64,000 nt of DNA from Candidatus Liptonbacteria bacterium. Lineage in GTDB: Bacteria; Patescibacteriota; Minisyncoccia; UBA6257; 2-01-FULL-56-20. The notes under the pieces are model-generated. The model was given only the letters and a program-made list of their open reading frames with translations. It had not been told where the DNA came from and did not search any database. Position numbers and translations under genes: made by a program. Each line of letters begins with the position of its first letter. Positions within the stretch are counted from its first letter, which is position 1. Of the stretch, positions 1 through 6,859 are shown piece by piece. The stretch lies in NCBI GenBank assembly GCA_016867315.1, contig VGJV01000001.1, positions 194,649 through 258,648 of the forward strand, given 5' to 3'.

Positions 1-590
1 TTTCGACCACTACGCATAAGACTCTTCGGGGACCTCGAGGAGCGATCATTATGTGCAAAGAGAAATTTGCGAAAGATATTGACCGAGCGGTATTCCCGGG
101 TGTTCAAGGAGGCCCGCATGATCACATCAACGCCGCCAAGGCAGTGGCCTTCGGAGAGGCGCTTAAGCCGGAATTTGTGCAATATGCCCAGCAGGTCATT
201 GCGAACGCTAGGGGCTTCGCGGCGGCGCTCATGAAGCGGGGATATCGGGTAATTTCGGGAGGCACAGACAACCACATCGTGCTCATCGATATGTTTGGCA
301 GCAAACAAATTACCGGTAAAGAAGCCGAACATGCTTTGGAACAGGTGAATATTTCCATTAATAAAAATATGATTCCGTACGATCCTCGAAAGCCCCTCGA
401 CCCTTCGGGAGTGCGCTTGGGAACTCCGGCAATAACTACGCGGGGGCTTAAAGAAAGTGACATGGAGACTGTGGCGGGATTCATTGACGAAACGCTTATC
501 AATCGAACGGACGAGGCGAAGCTCACCAGCATTCGTTCGCGCGTGACTCAGTTCGCGAGACAGTTTCCTGTGCCGGGGATAACGGCATAG
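1..590 (+). CDS. glyA: serine hydroxymethyltransferase, C-terminal portion (5' end lies upstream of window)
   Basis: Translation carries SHMT hallmark stretches '[28 protein letters not shown]' and '[15 protein letters not shown]'; reading frame stays open to the window edge. Confidence 0.85.
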
Positions 591-1370: not shown

Positions 1371-2219
1371 TTGCGCATGGCTCAAATTCTTGATGGGAAA
1401 AAGATAGCTGGGGAGGTCCTTGTCCGGCTTAAGTCCAGACCAGTTCCAAAGCAGTTTTTCGCAGGAGTACTTATAGGCGATGATCCGGCCTCCGAAAGTT
1501 TTCAAAAACTCAAACAGGGGGTGGCACGGGAGCTCGGGATTGATTATGGGATCTCTAAACTTTCTCCGGAGCTGGGGGATGAAGGACTTCGCGAGGAGGT
1601 AGGACGGATGGCTGAGGAGAAGAATTGTGGAGGCGTGATTGTACAACTTCCTTTACCCGAAGGACTCAATCCGCATTATATTGTGAATGCGATTCCGGCG
1701 GAGAAAGATCCGGATGTGTTGGGAGAGCGAGCATTGGGAGCTTTTTATAATGGGAGCGGGGTTGCTGTCCATCCGGCGGCAGCTACGGTGTGGGAAATTT
1801 TGAAACAGACGAATTTCAACCTGGAGGGAAAAAAAGTAGCCATTGTGGGGCCGGGGACTCTTATTGGGAAGCCGGTGGCGGTATCGCTTTTAGGGAAGGT
1901 GAGTAATCTCTATGTTTTGGGAAGGGGGTCGGATATGAGTTTACTTAAAAATTGCGATCTTGTGATTTTGGGAGTAGGAAAGGCGGGACTTGTGACTCCC
2001 GATATGCTCAAAGAAGGAGTCGGAGTAATTGACTTTGGATACAGTCCCGGAGAAAAGTTGGGAGTGAATGGGAAACCGTTACTTCGTGGGGATTTTGATT
2101 CATCGGATGCAGCTCTTTGCGATGCGCGATTGGCGTTCTATACTCCTACGCCCGGAGGAACGGGGCCGATTCTTGTTTCCAAACTTTTTGAGAATTTTTA
2201 CGCCTTGAATTCGGAATAG
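1371..2219 (+). CDS. folD: bifunctional methylenetetrahydrofolate dehydrogenase/cyclohydrolase (ATG probably at 1377)
   Basis: Classic FolD C-terminal motif 'YTPTPGGTGPILVSKLFENF' and typical length. The track ORF begins with TTG at 1371, and an in-frame ATG at 1377 gives MAQILDGKK. Confidence 0.9.
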   Translation: MRMAQILDGKKIAGEVLVRLKSRPVPKQFFAGVLIGDDPASESFQKLKQGVARELGIDYGISKLSPELGDEGLREEVGRMAEEKNCGGVIVQLPLPEGLNPHYIVNAIPAEKDPDVLGERALGAFYNGSGVAVHPAAATVWEILKQTNFNLEGKKVAIVGPGTLIGKPVAVSLLGKVSNLYVLGRGSDMSLLKNCDLVILGVGKAGLVTPDMLKEGVGVIDFGYSPGEKLGVNGKPLLRGDFDSSDAALCDARLAFYTPTPGGTGPILVSKLFENFYALNSE

Positions 2220-2221
2220 TA

Positions 2222-3223
2222 ATGCAGCGAAAGAAATCCTCTCCTCTTTTAGGGAAAGTTTTGAAAAAGATCGCTCCAAAAATCGGAGCGCGAGTCATTT
2301 TAGAGCCTCGATGGAACATCGTGGGGCAAATTATTTTTAAGCGCGGACGAAAGCGATATTTCAGGTATTCCAGCTTGGATTTAAATCCGCTCGGGGCTTC
2401 GGAAATCTCGAACGATAAAGACTACGCGAATTTTTTTATGAAACGATTGGGGTATCCTACGGTACCGGGCGAAGCTTTTTTCTCTCCTCAATGGGCGGAA
2501 GCGATCGGTTCCCGCCGCACTTTTCAGGCTGCGTATCGCTATGCGCGGAAGTTAGGGTTCCCCGTGGTTGTGAAGCCCAACAGCGGTAGCCAAGGGCGAG
2601 GAGTGACGCTGGTATATAACAAGAAAGAATTTTATTCTGCGTTACGTGAGATATTTTTGAGAGATAGAGTGGTCTTAGTCCAAAAGCCCGTTTTGGGAAA
2701 TGATTATCGGGTGGTGGTTCTCAATGATAAGGTAATTTCTGCATACCAGCGTATTCCTTTGAATGTCATAGGTGATGGAGTGTGCACTATCCGACAATTA
2801 CTTTTGGTAAAACAGCGCAGTTTCGAAGCCTCGAGTCGTGATACCCAACTCAAACTTAATGACCAGCGCATTTCTAAAAAGCTTGCTCGTCAGCGTTTAT
2901 TTATGCGATCCATTCCTGCTAAAGGGAGACAAGTTTTTCTTTTAGACAATGCGAACCTTTCTACGGGAGGAGATTCAATCGATGTTACTCGGGAGATCCA
3001 TCCTGATTTTAAAAAGATCGCTGTCGCTCTTACTAAAGACATGGGACTTCGGCTTTGTGGGGTGGATCTTATGGTGCGGGGAGACATCCGTCAGCTGCCT
3101 GCTACTTATTGGATTCTTGAAATAAACGCAGCTCCAGGACTCGATCATTATGCAAAGAGTGGAAAAGCACAGGAAAAAATAGTAGAAGATCTCTACTTGC
3201 AGGTTCTTAAAAGTATGGAGTGA
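2222..3223 (+). CDS. ATP-grasp ligase, cyanophycin-synthetase G-domain-like / RimK-CofF-like
   Basis: Motifs 'PVVVKPNSGSQGRGVT', 'GNDYRVVVLNDKVISAYQRIPLNVIGDGVCTIRQLL' and 'DNANLSTGGDSIDVTREIHP' resemble the ATP-grasp domain of CphA/RimK-type amino-acid ligases (recalled family signatures). Confidence 0.6.
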   Translation: MQRKKSSPLLGKVLKKIAPKIGARVILEPRWNIVGQIIFKRGRKRYFRYSSLDLNPLGASEISNDKDYANFFMKRLGYPTVPGEAFFSPQWAEAIGSRRTFQAAYRYARKLGFPVVVKPNSGSQGRGVTLVYNKKEFYSALREIFLRDRVVLVQKPVLGNDYRVVVLNDKVISAYQRIPLNVIGDGVCTIRQLLLVKQRSFEASSRDTQLKLNDQRISKKLARQRLFMRSIPAKGRQVFLLDNANLSTGGDSIDVTREIHPDFKKIAVALTKDMGLRLCGVDLMVRGDIRQLPATYWILEINAAPGLDHYAKSGKAQEKIVEDLYLQVLKSME

Positions 3224-3225
3224 TG

Positions 3226-3936
3226 TTACTCCCTCTTTTTTCTTAATCGTGAAAAAAGAGGTTTATACATGTCCTCCTGGATGTTTATGGAACATTCCCG
3301 GCGATTTACTTTCTCGGCGAATTTTACCGGTGCATTTTGGATGAGTGCGAGAGGCTTTTTTTCATTCCCTTCCCCCATTGTTAATACTGCGGCGGTAGCT
3401 AAGCCATCCGCTATATTTGTCTGAGCAAATCTAAATCTTCTTCCAAAAATGTCTTTTGTGCCGCGGTAATCTTTAAGGCCTCGGAATCCGGCGTACCCGA
3501 GGGCCACTCCGGTAACGCCGAGTCGAAGGGGGATTGTGCGGCTATCGGTGATGAGTACCCCCCAATTTTTTATTTTGTAGCATCTTCGGAGCGCATCTCG
3601 AAGACGGCGGGCGGTTTTAAAGCTATCTTTGGGAAGCAAGATAAGCTTGCCGTTCGCGTTCGATTCATCTATTCCCGCTGAAGCCATCATCATTCCATCT
3701 TTTATTGTGAGCCATACGTGTTTAGTACGGATGGCCATTTCACTTTCTTTCCGAATGAGATCAGGTTTAGTTCTGGAATTTTTTATGGGCGCGGTTCGAT
3801 TTTCGGAGAGCGCCACAATTTTAGAAGTTACTACGAGTACCGAGTTTTCGGGGATTTTCTTTATATATTTTTTTATAAACGCGAGAAGGTTTTCGCCTTC
3901 TTTAAATATGTGAGTTTTTATTGGGTTTATGTGCAT
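3226..3936 (-). CDS. CofE-like protein (F420-0:gamma-glutamyl ligase family)
   Basis: N-terminal 'VLVVTSKIVALSENR' and 'ASAGIDESNANGKLILLPKD', plus a Gly-rich C-terminal region 'GVTGVALGYAGFRGLKDYRG', match my recollection of CofE/FbiB-N family motifs. Convergent with the ATP-grasp gene with a 2-nt gap. Confidence 0.45.
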   Translation of the reverse strand: MHINPIKTHIFKEGENLLAFIKKYIKKIPENSVLVVTSKIVALSENRTAPIKNSRTKPDLIRKESEMAIRTKHVWLTIKDGMMMASAGIDESNANGKLILLPKDSFKTARRLRDALRRCYKIKNWGVLITDSRTIPLRLGVTGVALGYAGFRGLKDYRGTKDIFGRRFRFAQTNIADGLATAAVLTMGEGNEKKPLALIQNAPVKFAEKVNRRECSINIQEDMYKPLFSRLRKKRE

Positions 3937-3981
3937 GAAAATGTGGAGGGCAACGATTGTTTTCCTGCCCTCCGTTGTACC

Positions 3982-4617
3982 TTATTTTTTGTTTCTCATC
4001 CATTTTTTTTCGATGAGATAGAGAATATCATCCGAGGTTTCTATTTCGAGATGTGAAGGAACGGTATACGTGAGGAGGGTTGTGCCTCGCGGTACCAAGC
4101 GACGGGCCGTGGAAAAGGGATACTTCGCGAAAAAATCATTCCGCGGCATTTCCTGTGCTCCTACTCTGTACCCGGCATGGATTACTGTGTTTCGATTTGT
4201 CATCAGGCCGACGTGTCCAATGAGAAGATTTCCCGCAGGGCGGCTTGAGAAAAGCCCCTCAGTGAAGACTATATCTTCTTCGCCCAGTTCGCTCTCCGCG
4301 ATGCCTTCTCCATACTCGAGCCATCGTAGAAAATCTTTTGGGAGCCATATTCCCCGAATTGCATACAGGTATTTGATGAAGGTGATGCAGTTCAAAATGT
4401 GGGGAGCATTGCTGAAATCTGTTTCTCGTGCATATTGCACTTTCCCGATTAAATGCCGCGCTTCGCCGAGGAGATTTACCTCAATGCGATGTAGGCCGGA
4501 ATTTCTGAGGATGCTTAGCGCATCCAGGTAGGGAATGTTAAGATTCGTGGAGTTTAGGTTTACCGCGCAGCGTCTTTCAGCGGATTGAGGCAATTGAGTG
4601 GCAATGAGATATTTCAC
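3982..4617 (-). CDS. hypothetical protein, co-oriented directly upstream of the CofE-like gene
   Basis: 211-aa ORF with plausible globular composition and no motif I can assign confidently. The antisense ORF 4070..4531 is judged spurious. Confidence 0.4.
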   Translation of the reverse strand: MKYLIATQLPQSAERRCAVNLNSTNLNIPYLDALSILRNSGLHRIEVNLLGEARHLIGKVQYARETDFSNAPHILNCITFIKYLYAIRGIWLPKDFLRWLEYGEGIAESELGEEDIVFTEGLFSSRPAGNLLIGHVGLMTNRNTVIHAGYRVGAQEMPRNDFFAKYPFSTARRLVPRGTTLLTYTVPSHLEIETSDDILYLIEKKWMRNKK

Positions 4618-4643: not shown

Positions 4644-4675
4644 GAACAAAATTAAAACCGCCTCAGAAAGGCGGC
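4644..4675 (-). terminator. hairpin CCGCCTcagaaaGGCGG with T-run on the minus strand
   Basis: On the minus strand the sequence reads GCCGCCTTTCTGAGGCGG followed by TTTTTAATTTT, downstream of tRNA-Val and the EEP gene. Confidence 0.4.
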
Positions 4676-4780
4676 TCAATTAGAAATCAATGAGAGCCGC
4701 CTCTTACGTCGAGGTGTGCCTTGCAAAGCTAGACCAGGTGGAGCGAAAGCGAGTAATAAGCATGGGATTATTGTATCATG

Positions 4781-6515: not shown

Positions 6516-6782
6516 GCCGCGGTAGCTCAGTGGCAGAGCATTCGCCTGAACTCTTCGGGCACCGATTCAGTAATGAGTCGGTAAAAACTGGGTGAATTCG
6601 GGGGAACTTCGCAAGAACAATCCCGAGCCAAGCTCCAAACTTGGAGAAGGTGTAGAGACTATCCCTTCGGGGAGTACTCTGAAAAATCAGAGGAAGCGCC
6701 CAGCTCCGCGCAAGCGGATGATGATATAGTCCAACTTCGCAGGAAGAGCGATTGGTCGTCAGTTCGATTCTGACCCGCGGCA
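6516..6782 (+). tRNA. tRNA-Phe (anticodon GAA) interrupted in the anticodon loop by a ~195-nt group I intron
   Basis: Exon 1 (6516-~6547): GCCGCGG-TA-GCTC-AGTGGCA-GAGC-A-TTCGC-CT. Exon 2 (~6743-6782): GAAGA-GCGAT-TGGTC-GTCAG-TTCGATT-CTGAC-CCGCGGC-A. Spliced anticodon loop is CTGAAGA. Acceptor, D, anticodon and T stems all pair. Confidence 0.7.
6548..6742 (+). ncRNA. group I self-splicing intron within tRNA-Phe
   Basis: Core elements are present: P-like GTGAATTCGGGGGAAC (6591-6607), Q-like AATCCCGAGCC (6619-6629), R 'GTAGAGACTA' (6652-6661) and S 'GATATAGTCC' (6723-6732) forming P7. The internal guide GGGC (6557-6560) pairs with exon GCCT, giving a U.G at the proposed 5' splice site. The candidate omega-G is at 6742. 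Exact exon boundaries are uncertain by a few nt. Confidence 0.65.
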
Positions 6783-6859
6783 CATTATATAAAGCAAAAC
6801 ACCTCCCCCGGGAGGTGTTTTGCTTTCCAGACTACTTGCTACCCGCTACGTGCTACTCG

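Follow-up and report, generated by a model that had tools for sequence, protein, structure and literature searches.

The locus described here raises a simple question: what is modified by two amino acid ligases, one of them from a family named for coenzyme F420, when their genes lie next to folD, a gene of one-carbon metabolism? The genes are found in a 64,000-nucleotide stretch of DNA, referred to below as the window, from a Candidatus Liptonbacteria bacterium (assembly GCA_016867315.1, contig VGJV01000001.1, positions 194,649 to 258,648), a member of the Patescibacteria or candidate phyla radiation (CPR). One ligase is related to CofE, the F420-0:gamma-glutamyl ligase, the other is an ATP-grasp enzyme, and a third gene encodes a peptidase. 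An earlier note on this DNA, written from the sequence alone, had suggested a non-canonical glutamylation system that might act on folate. On balance we favor a related answer, namely that the genes belong to a module by which Patescibacteria salvage and retain folate and modify its tail. All three open reading frames (ORFs) to which the note had drawn attention were found, and together with two one-carbon genes upstream of them (THF, tetrahydrofolate) they are:

51..590, + strand: 3' part of glyA (serine hydroxymethyltransferase; PF00464 SHMT, E=2.3e-55, profile positions 259-399)
1371..2219, + strand: folD (methylene-THF dehydrogenase / methenyl-THF cyclohydrolase; PF02882 and PF00763)
2222..3223, + strand: ATP-grasp ligase gene (333 amino acids; TGA stop at 3221-3223)
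3226..3936, - strand: CofE-like gene (236 amino acids; TAA stop on the reverse strand, 3226-3228)
3982..4617, - strand: NlpC/P60-type peptidase gene (211 amino acids; GTG start, Shine-Dalgarno-like AAAGGAAA)

The TAG stop of folD at 2217-2219 is separated by 2 nucleotides from the ATG of the ATP-grasp gene at 2222, and the two ligase genes converge tail to tail, as had been claimed, with stop codons 2 nucleotides apart. The pair had also been placed directly beside glyA and folD. This is so for folD, whereas glyA and folD are themselves separated by an ORF of 168-193 amino acids and a hairpin. The folD product scores ~130 bits against the FolD equivalog models, under their strict cut-offs, and glyA begins outside the window, the complete 416-residue gene having been read on the parent contig.

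A match of the CofE-like product to CofE profiles had been set beforehand as a test of the proposal, and against PF01996 (F420_ligase) the protein scores 138.7 bits (E=2.6e-40, cut-off 25). The best NCBIfam model is TIGR04132, 'putative folate metabolism gamma-glutamate ligase', with 218.6 bits and an alignment that runs end to end (residues 1-232 of the protein to 1-238 of the 241 model positions), while TIGR01916, the model for CofE, gives 128.8 bits. Because both scores lie under the equivalog cut-offs (350 and 180.65, respectively) the protein represents a separate CPR subfamily, closer to FolC2 than to CofE. Archaeoglobus CofE (Af-CofE; 2G9I/7ULD) matches with E=3e-20, and in the alignment to it the core motifs GIDxSN (D90), TD(S/T) (D131-S132) and MGEG (E189) are kept. 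The conserved residues of these motifs we take to be the metal ligands of Nocek et al. 2007. The F420 chromophore is contacted in Af-CofE by F92, G153-C155 and R234 (PMC10861534). The first of these is replaced by H73 in the window protein and by Tyr in the family consensus, the second corresponds to T134-I135-P136, and R234 falls in a C-terminal segment that cannot be aligned.

The family is large (4801 hits) and is found at ~70% identity over Liptonbacteria, Taylorbacteria, Kerfeldbacteria, Uhrbacteria, Portnoybacteria and other lineages; a few JGI records name CPR homologues 'dihydrofolate synthase / folylpolyglutamate synthase'. The gene for the chlamydial COG1478 homologue CT611 (FolC2) lies in a cluster with folate genes, and an E. 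coli folC mutant is complemented by it (PMC1971073; PMC4161248). From profile scores and residues the CofE-like protein is most likely an enzyme of this FolC2 type, a kind that has been known since 2007. The suggestion of a CofE-family ligase acting on folate is therefore upheld by TIGR04132 and by the gene context, and its description as non-canonical, if taken to mean new, is not. As a separate matter, the public label 'coenzyme F420-0:L-glutamate ligase' is misleading for this FolC2-like protein, which is very abundant in CPR.

Gene context was examined in 160 related loci, 80 of them anchored on the CofE-like gene and 80 on the ATP-grasp gene, with ORFs called and clustered and the clusters identified by profile. 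The CofE-anchored loci come from 80 species-representative genomes, and in 51 at least 3 kb of sequence is available on both sides. Neighbors were counted in these 51 loci within 3 kb of the CofE-like gene, with the following results:

Vut_1, 'putative vitamin uptake transporter' (PF02592): 21/51 loci
c2, a 242-residue membrane protein without family: 9/51 loci
ATP-grasp: 9/51 loci
RibD_C/DHFR-like reductase: 6/51 loci
FolB: 3/51 loci
DHFR: 3/51 loci
ThyA: 3/51 loci
dCMP deaminase: 3/51 loci

At least one of these neighbors is present in 38 of the 51 loci. In four (L016, L031, L056 and L079, at about 6.8-8.7 kb) Vut_1, DHFR-like and CofE-like genes form operons, and by analogy these appear to match the transport, reduction and glutamylation logic of intact-folate salvage (PMC1971073). 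DHFR, ThyA, 5-formyl-THF cyclo-ligase (5-FCL), FolD, GlyA and FolB, all found in the loci, point to folate as the substrate. A position of folD/glyA directly beside the CofE-like module is found only in the closest relatives of the window (L001, L002, L161). Within the 64-kb window itself glyA and folD are the only folate genes; FolC, for which a check had been proposed, is not encoded there, nor are DHFR, ThyA, Vut_1, 5-FCL, FolB or c2. The earlier note had remarked that no F420 pathway was evident, and indeed no F420-pathway genes (cofC/D/G/H) were found in the window, in about 10 kb of parent-contig flank or in the 160 related loci.

Several of the genes that accompany the CofE-like ligase are of interest in their own right. 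The commonest upstream neighbor is a Vut_1/YhhQ-type transporter, and the cargo of this Vut_1 subgroup may be folate or pterins instead of preQ0. The multi-pass protein c2 (L013:6762-7490; also in L005, L019, L029, L034, L060 and others) is encoded between the ATP-grasp and CofE-like genes and seems to replace Vut_1 at its loci. It gave no Pfam, NCBIfam or meaningful PDB match, and a relationship to Vut_1 or to ECF-FolT as a divergent member was rejected (hhalign probability 0.2% for Vut_1, no meaningful PDB hit); we regard it as a candidate novel folate/pterin transporter. Finally, a NUDIX hydrolase (cluster k30) lies beside the CofE-like gene in L112, L146, L147 and L158 and could be a FolQ-like pyrophosphatase, or unrelated.

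We turn now to the ATP-grasp protein, for which a resemblance either to the cyanophycin synthetase G domain or to CofF had been claimed. It matches several Pfam ATP-grasp families (RimK, E=7.6e-15), and among NCBIfam models it scores 177 bits against the G region of cyanophycin synthetase, 155 against the GshAB C-terminal domain and 106 against N-acetylglutaminylglutamine synthetase, with PurT/PurK-type families absent from the close hits. The match to the full-length cyanophycin synthetase model (171-177 bits) covers positions ~208-471 and does not reach the cut-off of 850. Of the two resemblances, then, that to the G domain stands. A CofF orthologue was rejected (TIGR04443, 27.0 bits, cut-off 300), as was a RimK-type enzyme (TIGR00768, 64.4 bits, cut-off 143.4; structures at a template modeling (TM) score of ~0.5, E ~1e-12), so that a CofE plus CofF pair does not hold by homology and survives only as an analogy, in the sense of a second tail ligase. 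In a PDB sequence search GshAB (3LN7) is the top match (E ~7e-34 to 1e-37), followed by CphA1/CphA2 (1e-30 to 1e-35), with Ddl and RimK far weaker. An AlphaFold (AF2) model with a predicted local distance difference test (pLDDT) score of 84.5 superposes over its whole length on TeCphA1 (7WAE) with TM 0.72 and on GshAB with 0.67, in contrast to only ~0.46-0.51 for Ddl, RimK and ArgX. Taken together, these comparisons make the protein a stand-alone relative of the CphA G domain and of the glutathione-synthetase domain of GshF.

The residues of the ATP-grasp protein were compared with those of TeCphA1, using the roles given in PMC9427784 and a HMMER alignment to 7WAC, the numbering of which was taken as native (K261 and H267 fall in KPLDGNHGRG):

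K261, phosphate-binding Lys: K118 in the window protein
R309, by which the acyl phosphate is stabilized: R163
D431 and E450, Mg ligands: D282 and E300
G456, oxyanion: G306
R323 and N394, large-loop ANLSTGG and substrate contacts: R177 and N245
R458, holding the incoming Asp by its alpha-carboxylate: D308 (invariant; motif 'APGLDHY')
H267, P-loop: Q124

The conserved positions are invariant or nearly so among 35 family members. Since the catalytic positions are conserved, with D308 and Q124 in place of R458 and H267, acyl-phosphate/amide-forming catalysis is predicted to be intact and the pocket for the incoming substrate to be unlike those of CphA1 and GshF. The family is found at ~70% identity across CPR (3374 hits) and, clustered at 50% identity, its stand-alone proteins of ~330 residues fall into more than 140 groups. 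PGAP gives them the name 'cyanophycin synthetase', which for a 333-residue stand-alone ATP-grasp is an over-annotation. A 'Rosetta-stone' fusion of the ATP-grasp to a folate enzyme or peptidase was sought in an exhaustive profile search and none was found; relatives of greater length consist of ATP-grasp modules in tandem, some of them joined to an acylphosphatase.

What connects this protein to folate is its genomic partnership. The ATP-grasp-anchored set consists of 80 independent metagenomic loci, 34 of them with at least 3 kb on both flanks, and in these 34 a CofE-like gene lies within 3 kb of the ATP-grasp in 18 cases and a canonical FolC in 4, giving one or the other in 22/34 and both together in 0/34. 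The FolC partner is bona fide (TIGR01499, 304.7 bits, cut-off 162.65; only ~49 bits for the cyanophycin synthetase model). In the full set of 160 loci there are 6 with a true FolC, always beside the ATP-grasp and never with the CofE-like gene (0/160 shared). A truncated 5-FCL (PF01812, 53 bits; TIGR02727, 59 bits) lies directly 3' of the ATP-grasp in 12 of its 12 occurrences and is absent from CofE-like loci without an ATP-grasp. Among the 150 neighbors within two genes of the ATP-grasp the top Pfam families are F420_ligase (22) and 5-FTHF_cyc-lig (9). The ATP-grasp and CofE-like genes stay linked in at least 7 different gene orders and in either orientation (convergent, tandem and others), in some loci with 5-FCL, c2 or a DHFR-like gene between the ligases and with the peptidase on either side. 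When a rough neighbor-joining tree is drawn for the ATP-grasps, those with a CofE-like partner are scattered all over it, and the FolC partner is confined to one clade and at least one case apart from it. In genomes of ~1 Mb two genes would be expected to lie within 3 kb of each other by chance less than about 1% of the time. Folate glutamyl ligases have a conserved partner in this ATP-grasp, and in our literature search no paper was found that ties this ATP-grasp family, or the trio of two ligases and a peptidase, to folate. It is this conserved, mis-annotated ATP-grasp partner and the occasional peptidase that are the new part of the system, the CofE-like gene being a FolC2 of the known kind.

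Two side observations concern these loci. The truncated 5-FCL (L087-L157, e.g. L089:3671-4138) is ~155 residues in length, matches only the C-terminal third of the profile and, instead of being a full 5-FCL, might serve to bind folate as a partner protein. In L161 (11495-12008), and also in L162, a PhD/YefM-ParE toxin-antitoxin pair sits exactly between the CofE-like and ATP-grasp genes, the rest being unchanged.

The third gene of the locus had been described as hypothetical and co-transcribed with the CofE-like gene; its product is in fact a NlpC/P60-family peptidase. Against PF00877 the window protein scores 25.0 bits (cut-off 23) and a homologue 45.1 bits, and the Cys-His-His triad C77, H135 and H147 is invariant in 12 homologues, which occur in a long form of 204-231 residues and a short form of ~147-167 (one copy is cut by a contig end). 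The structural model matches the DL-endopeptidases Spr/MepS, LytE and CwlO with E of about 1e-4 to 1e-5. Inspection revealed no N-terminal hydrophobic segment or signal peptide and no extra Pfam or wall-binding domain. The protein is fast-evolving, and a word-seeded homologue search, which is insensitive for such a protein, returned 3 proteins. Local hidden Markov model searches place the peptidase in 9 of the 160 loci, in all 9 of them together with both ligases; on the ATP-grasp tree these loci fall into 4 or more lineages, and the peptidase is found also in the relatives of the window L161-L166. Members of the NlpC/P60 family cleave gamma-glutamyl-containing peptides. For this reason, and because of the precedent of trypanothione/glutathionylspermidine synthetase-amidase, we predict, with low to moderate confidence, that the peptidase is a tail-trimming or de-capping amidase.

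The mechanism that we propose has three steps, which differ in how firmly they can be put forward. The first, that the CofE-family protein acts as a FolC2-type enzyme, is well supported and quite probably correct. The enzyme would activate the gamma-carboxylate of the glutamate of folate with a nucleoside triphosphate and add L-glutamate, as CofE does on F420, and the resulting polyglutamylated folate would stay in the cell and be favored by GlyA, FolD and ThyA. In the second step the ATP-grasp enzyme, co-transcribed with folD, probably acts on folate or its tail. By analogy with its relatives CphA1 and GshF it would most likely act on a glutamate of the tail, at a free alpha-carboxylate, which would be phosphorylated to give an acyl phosphate to which an amine or amino acid is then joined, leading to an alpha-linked cap or branch. 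This specific alpha-carboxylate chemistry we put forward only tentatively. The presence of the invariant D308 in place of the CphA1 Arg that binds the alpha-carboxylate of the incoming aspartate argues that the added residue is not necessarily glutamate and could be one with a positive charge. In the third step, which is somewhat more doubtful, the NlpC/P60 peptidase may hydrolyze a tail amide, either at the gamma-glutamyl bonds or in the ATP-grasp product, so that the ligase/amidase couple would set tail length or modification. It is possible, though we think it rather unlikely in all its parts, that Patescibacteria make a new folate derivative in which an alpha-cap or branch that is not glutamate, and is possibly basic, is placed on a FolC2- or FolC-made tail and removed by a cytoplasmic NlpC/P60 amidase. 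Such a cofactor-tail editing system, a stand-alone ATP-grasp with a FolC-type ligase, would resemble an unfused cyanophycin-synthetase G+M pair.

A number of observations weigh against this picture. The score of the CofE-like protein, 218.6 bits, is under the curated TIGR04132 cut-off of 350, and the identity of the ATP-grasp to characterized relatives is only 23-29%, with no fusion to a folate enzyme among its more distant relatives. D308 is at odds with a simple 'alpha-glutamate cap' analogy. The known substrates of NlpC/P60 enzymes are peptidoglycan peptides, and the model of the peptidase, built from 3 sequences, is of low confidence (pLDDT 66). The loci are phylogenetically related, so that raw counts overstate their independence and the variety of architectures is the better argument. 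An ATP-grasp is nearby in only 9/51 CofE-anchored loci, from which it follows that FolC2 does not need the ATP-grasp in cis. Lastly, Vut_1, the commonest neighbor of the CofE-like gene, matches the queuosine-precursor transporter model TIGR00697 with 142.7 bits, above cut-off, and given this match the substrate could conceivably be a pterin or a compound of the 7-deazapurine type instead of folate.

Of the other explanations the one that survives best keeps the ATP-grasp in folate metabolism and gives it a different reaction: addition of the first glutamate to (dihydro)pteroate as in a DHFS-like step, making or re-use of p-aminobenzoyl-glutamate, or formation of formyl phosphate in the manner of Fhs or PurT. 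The tight coupling of the gene to folD in the window and its divergent adjacency to folD in L089 and L132, the 5-FCL-like gene directly 3' of it where present, and FolB in some loci, a hint of partial pterin chemistry, are all in keeping with such a role, and ATP-grasp enzymes generally form acyl phosphates from many carboxylates. We nevertheless consider it unlikely, since the nearest relatives, the CphA1/2 G domain and GshF, all ligate an amino acid to a peptide alpha-carboxylate, whereas PurT/PurK-type families are not among the close hits. In addition, the ATP-grasp also pairs with canonical FolC, which is typically capable of both dihydrofolate synthase and folylpolyglutamate synthase activity, neither FolK nor FolP is among the top 25 neighbor families, and the co-occurring peptidase suggests peptide-bond chemistry.

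Less likely again is that the trio makes and trims a small gamma/alpha-linked peptide or poly-amino acid apart from folate, the second option of the earlier note, with the folate neighborhood reflecting co-regulation only. A side-chain ligase with a CphA-G/GshF-like ATP-grasp is the architecture of the cyanophycin and glutathione synthetases, PGAP uses the name 'cyanophycin synthetase', and cleavage of gamma-glutamyl peptides by NlpC/P60 enzymes is textbook knowledge. Yet the context of the CofE-like gene consists of a transporter, DHFR-like reductase, FolB, ThyA and DHFR, the alternative partner is a true FolC by a wide difference in score (304.7 bits for TIGR01499 vs ~49 for cyanophycin synthetase), many loci have 5-FCL in between the two ligase genes, and the 333-residue ATP-grasp has neither the N nor the M domain of CphA and does not conserve R458 and H267.

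We give still lower odds to the ATP-grasp and the peptidase being unrelated to the CofE-like enzyme, for instance through a role in the synthesis or recycling of cell-wall peptides, with their adjacency due to gene packing and inherited order. The structural matches of the peptidase are indeed peptidoglycan DL-endopeptidases, Ddl-type ligases are distantly related to the ATP-grasp, only 16-18% of CofE-anchored loci have an ATP-grasp, and the sampled loci are related. The linkage, however, holds over at least 7 gene orders, both orientations and the swap of a CofE-type for a FolC-type ligase, the peptidase, in which inspection revealed neither a signal peptide nor a wall-binding domain, is never without the two ligases (9/9), and no Mur or peptidoglycan genes are enriched among the neighbors. 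A genuine F420 tail system, in which CofE adds gamma-glutamates and a CofF-like ATP-grasp an alpha-glutamate cap to salvaged or synthesized F420, is hardly credible and was rejected on profile scores, pocket residues and gene context: although the CofE-like protein is in PF01996 and CofE/CofF are a known pair, the CofE equivalog score (128.8, cut-off 180.65) is lower than that for FolC2, the ATP-grasp scores 27 bits for CofF against a cut-off of 300, the chromophore-contact residues of Af-CofE are not conserved, no F420-pathway family lies near the 160 loci, and a review of F420 that names the phyla carrying F420 genes never mentions CPR/Patescibacteria.

The arrangement of the region on the DNA adds some detail to the folate-tail module. 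On the parent contig the + strand carries dCMP deaminase, dUTPase, glyA, the 168-residue ORF, folD and the ATP-grasp, and this operon converges on genes for an EEP-family protein, the NlpC/P60 peptidase and the CofE-like ligase. Three hairpins were noted around the latter genes:

3217..3232, either strand: short hairpin over both stop codons, T-runs on both strands (consensus scan, 6-bp stem)
3945..3973, - strand: GC-rich hairpin of 8 bp (GGAGGGCA/TGCCCTCC, 13-nucleotide loop), then ACATTTTC (sequence inspection)
4655..4677, - strand: terminator-like hairpin, 10-bp stem then T-run, between tRNA-Val and the peptidase gene

The first is, on weak evidence, a possible weak bidirectional terminator. 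The second lies within the 45-nucleotide spacer between the peptidase and CofE-like genes, just 5' of the CofE-like start codon, and could serve for attenuation, for processing or to mask the ribosome-binding site. The third, terminator-like, may mark the upstream boundary of the peptidase/CofE-like unit. Promoter and terminator scans showed no enrichment over shuffles, with 11 terminator-like sites in the region as compared to 8.4 +/- 3.2.

The ORF of 168-193 amino acids between glyA and folD, 691/766-1272 (+), has no Pfam match and is followed on its 3' side by a strong terminator-like hairpin at 1300-1330 (12 bp, 9 GC). Gene calling on the parent contig includes it, and it is missing in the relative L161, where glyA adjoins folD; it may be a lineage-specific insertion. 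Elsewhere in the window, at 6516-6783 (+), tRNA-Phe(GAA) is split in its anticodon loop by a 195-nucleotide group I intron (Rfam RF00028, 50.9 bits at 6538-6753), detected by aragorn with introns allowed, the default tRNA scan giving no gene.

Polyglutamylation of folate governs both retention of the cofactor and its affinity for enzymes, and the Patescibacteria, which scavenge cofactors and are mostly uncultured, make up a large share of bacterial diversity. If the proposal is correct, thousands of CPR proteins labeled 'coenzyme F420-0:L-glutamate ligase' are folate enzymes from which F420 is not to be inferred, and thousands of 'cyanophycin synthetase' proteins constitute a distinct folate-linked ligase family from which cyanophycin storage is not to be inferred; metabolic reconstructions of CPR that trust both labels would wrongly deduce the presence of cyanophycin and F420. 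It would also provide the first sequence for enzymes that extend folate tails by alpha-linked residues, and with it a way to approach the alpha-linked glutamates noticed long ago in the folates of bacteria. The module would further nominate folate/pterin importers (the Vut_1 subgroup and c2) and a bacterial folate-tail hydrolase, all as candidates.

It is of interest to compare the locus with systems that are already known. E. coli folates bear alpha-linked distal glutamates, and an activity forming alpha-carboxyl-linked folylpolyglutamates, distinct from FolC, is attributed to Ferone et al. 1986 in PMC1971073. Folate tails can thus carry enzyme-added alpha-linked residues, as proposed here, the E. 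coli activity being known as an enzyme preparation only. We know of no gene that has been established for it. CofF, the archaeal partner of CofE, and MptN add alpha-Glu caps to cofactor tails, and the logic there is similar, in that a gamma-glutamyl ligase builds a tail and an ATP-grasp enzyme adds an alpha-linked residue. These systems are unlike the present case in that the proposed cofactor here is folate, the window ATP-grasp is not of the RimK/CofF/MptN type (27-64 bits, TM ~0.5) and there is no F420 context. For the CofE-like protein the closest parallel is FolC2 (CT611), also a CofE-family protein among folate genes in a reduced genome, for which TIGR04132 is the best model over the full length and which, as shown for the chlamydial enzyme, functionally replaces FolC. 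The context in CPR is one of salvage (transporter, DHFR-like reductase, 5-FCL, ThyA), in contrast to the de novo folBKPA cluster of Chlamydia, and the CPR gene is often accompanied by an ATP-grasp and sometimes by NlpC/P60, neither of which appears in descriptions of the chlamydial folate cluster (PMC1971073; PMC4161248).

For the pairing of an ATP-grasp with NlpC/P60 a precedent is provided by trypanothione/glutathionylspermidine synthetase-amidase, where an ATP-grasp C:N ligase and a papain-like CHAP Cys-His amidase act on the same amide and regulate product level (PMC2427367); there the activities are fused and the substrates are glutathione and spermidine, while the window has separate genes, and the likeness drawn here is one of architecture. 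For the ATP-grasp itself the nearest relatives are GshF and cyanophycin synthetase, in which the GshF ATP-grasp and the CphA1 G domain place an amino acid onto an alpha-carboxylate and a partner module (GshA or the MurE/FolC-like M domain) handles the side-chain carboxylate (PMC9427784). GshF/GshAB is the top PDB sequence match (3LN7), and its ATP-grasp takes the gamma-glutamyl peptide from the partner domain and attaches an amino acid at the alpha-carboxylate; the window protein differs in having neither a fused GshA nor a glutathione context, and in its P-loop and pocket residues (Q124, D308). With respect to CphA1, it stands alone at 333 residues without N or M domain, carries D308 for R458 and Q124 for H267, and has as partner a separate FolC2 or FolC in a context of folate rather than nitrogen storage. 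CphA1 and CphA2 are nonetheless among its closest relatives in sequence and structure (E ~1e-30, TM 0.72), with seven catalytic residues shared, and the G domain of CphA1 beside its Mur-ligase-like M domain is mirrored by the ATP-grasp beside FolC or FolC2.

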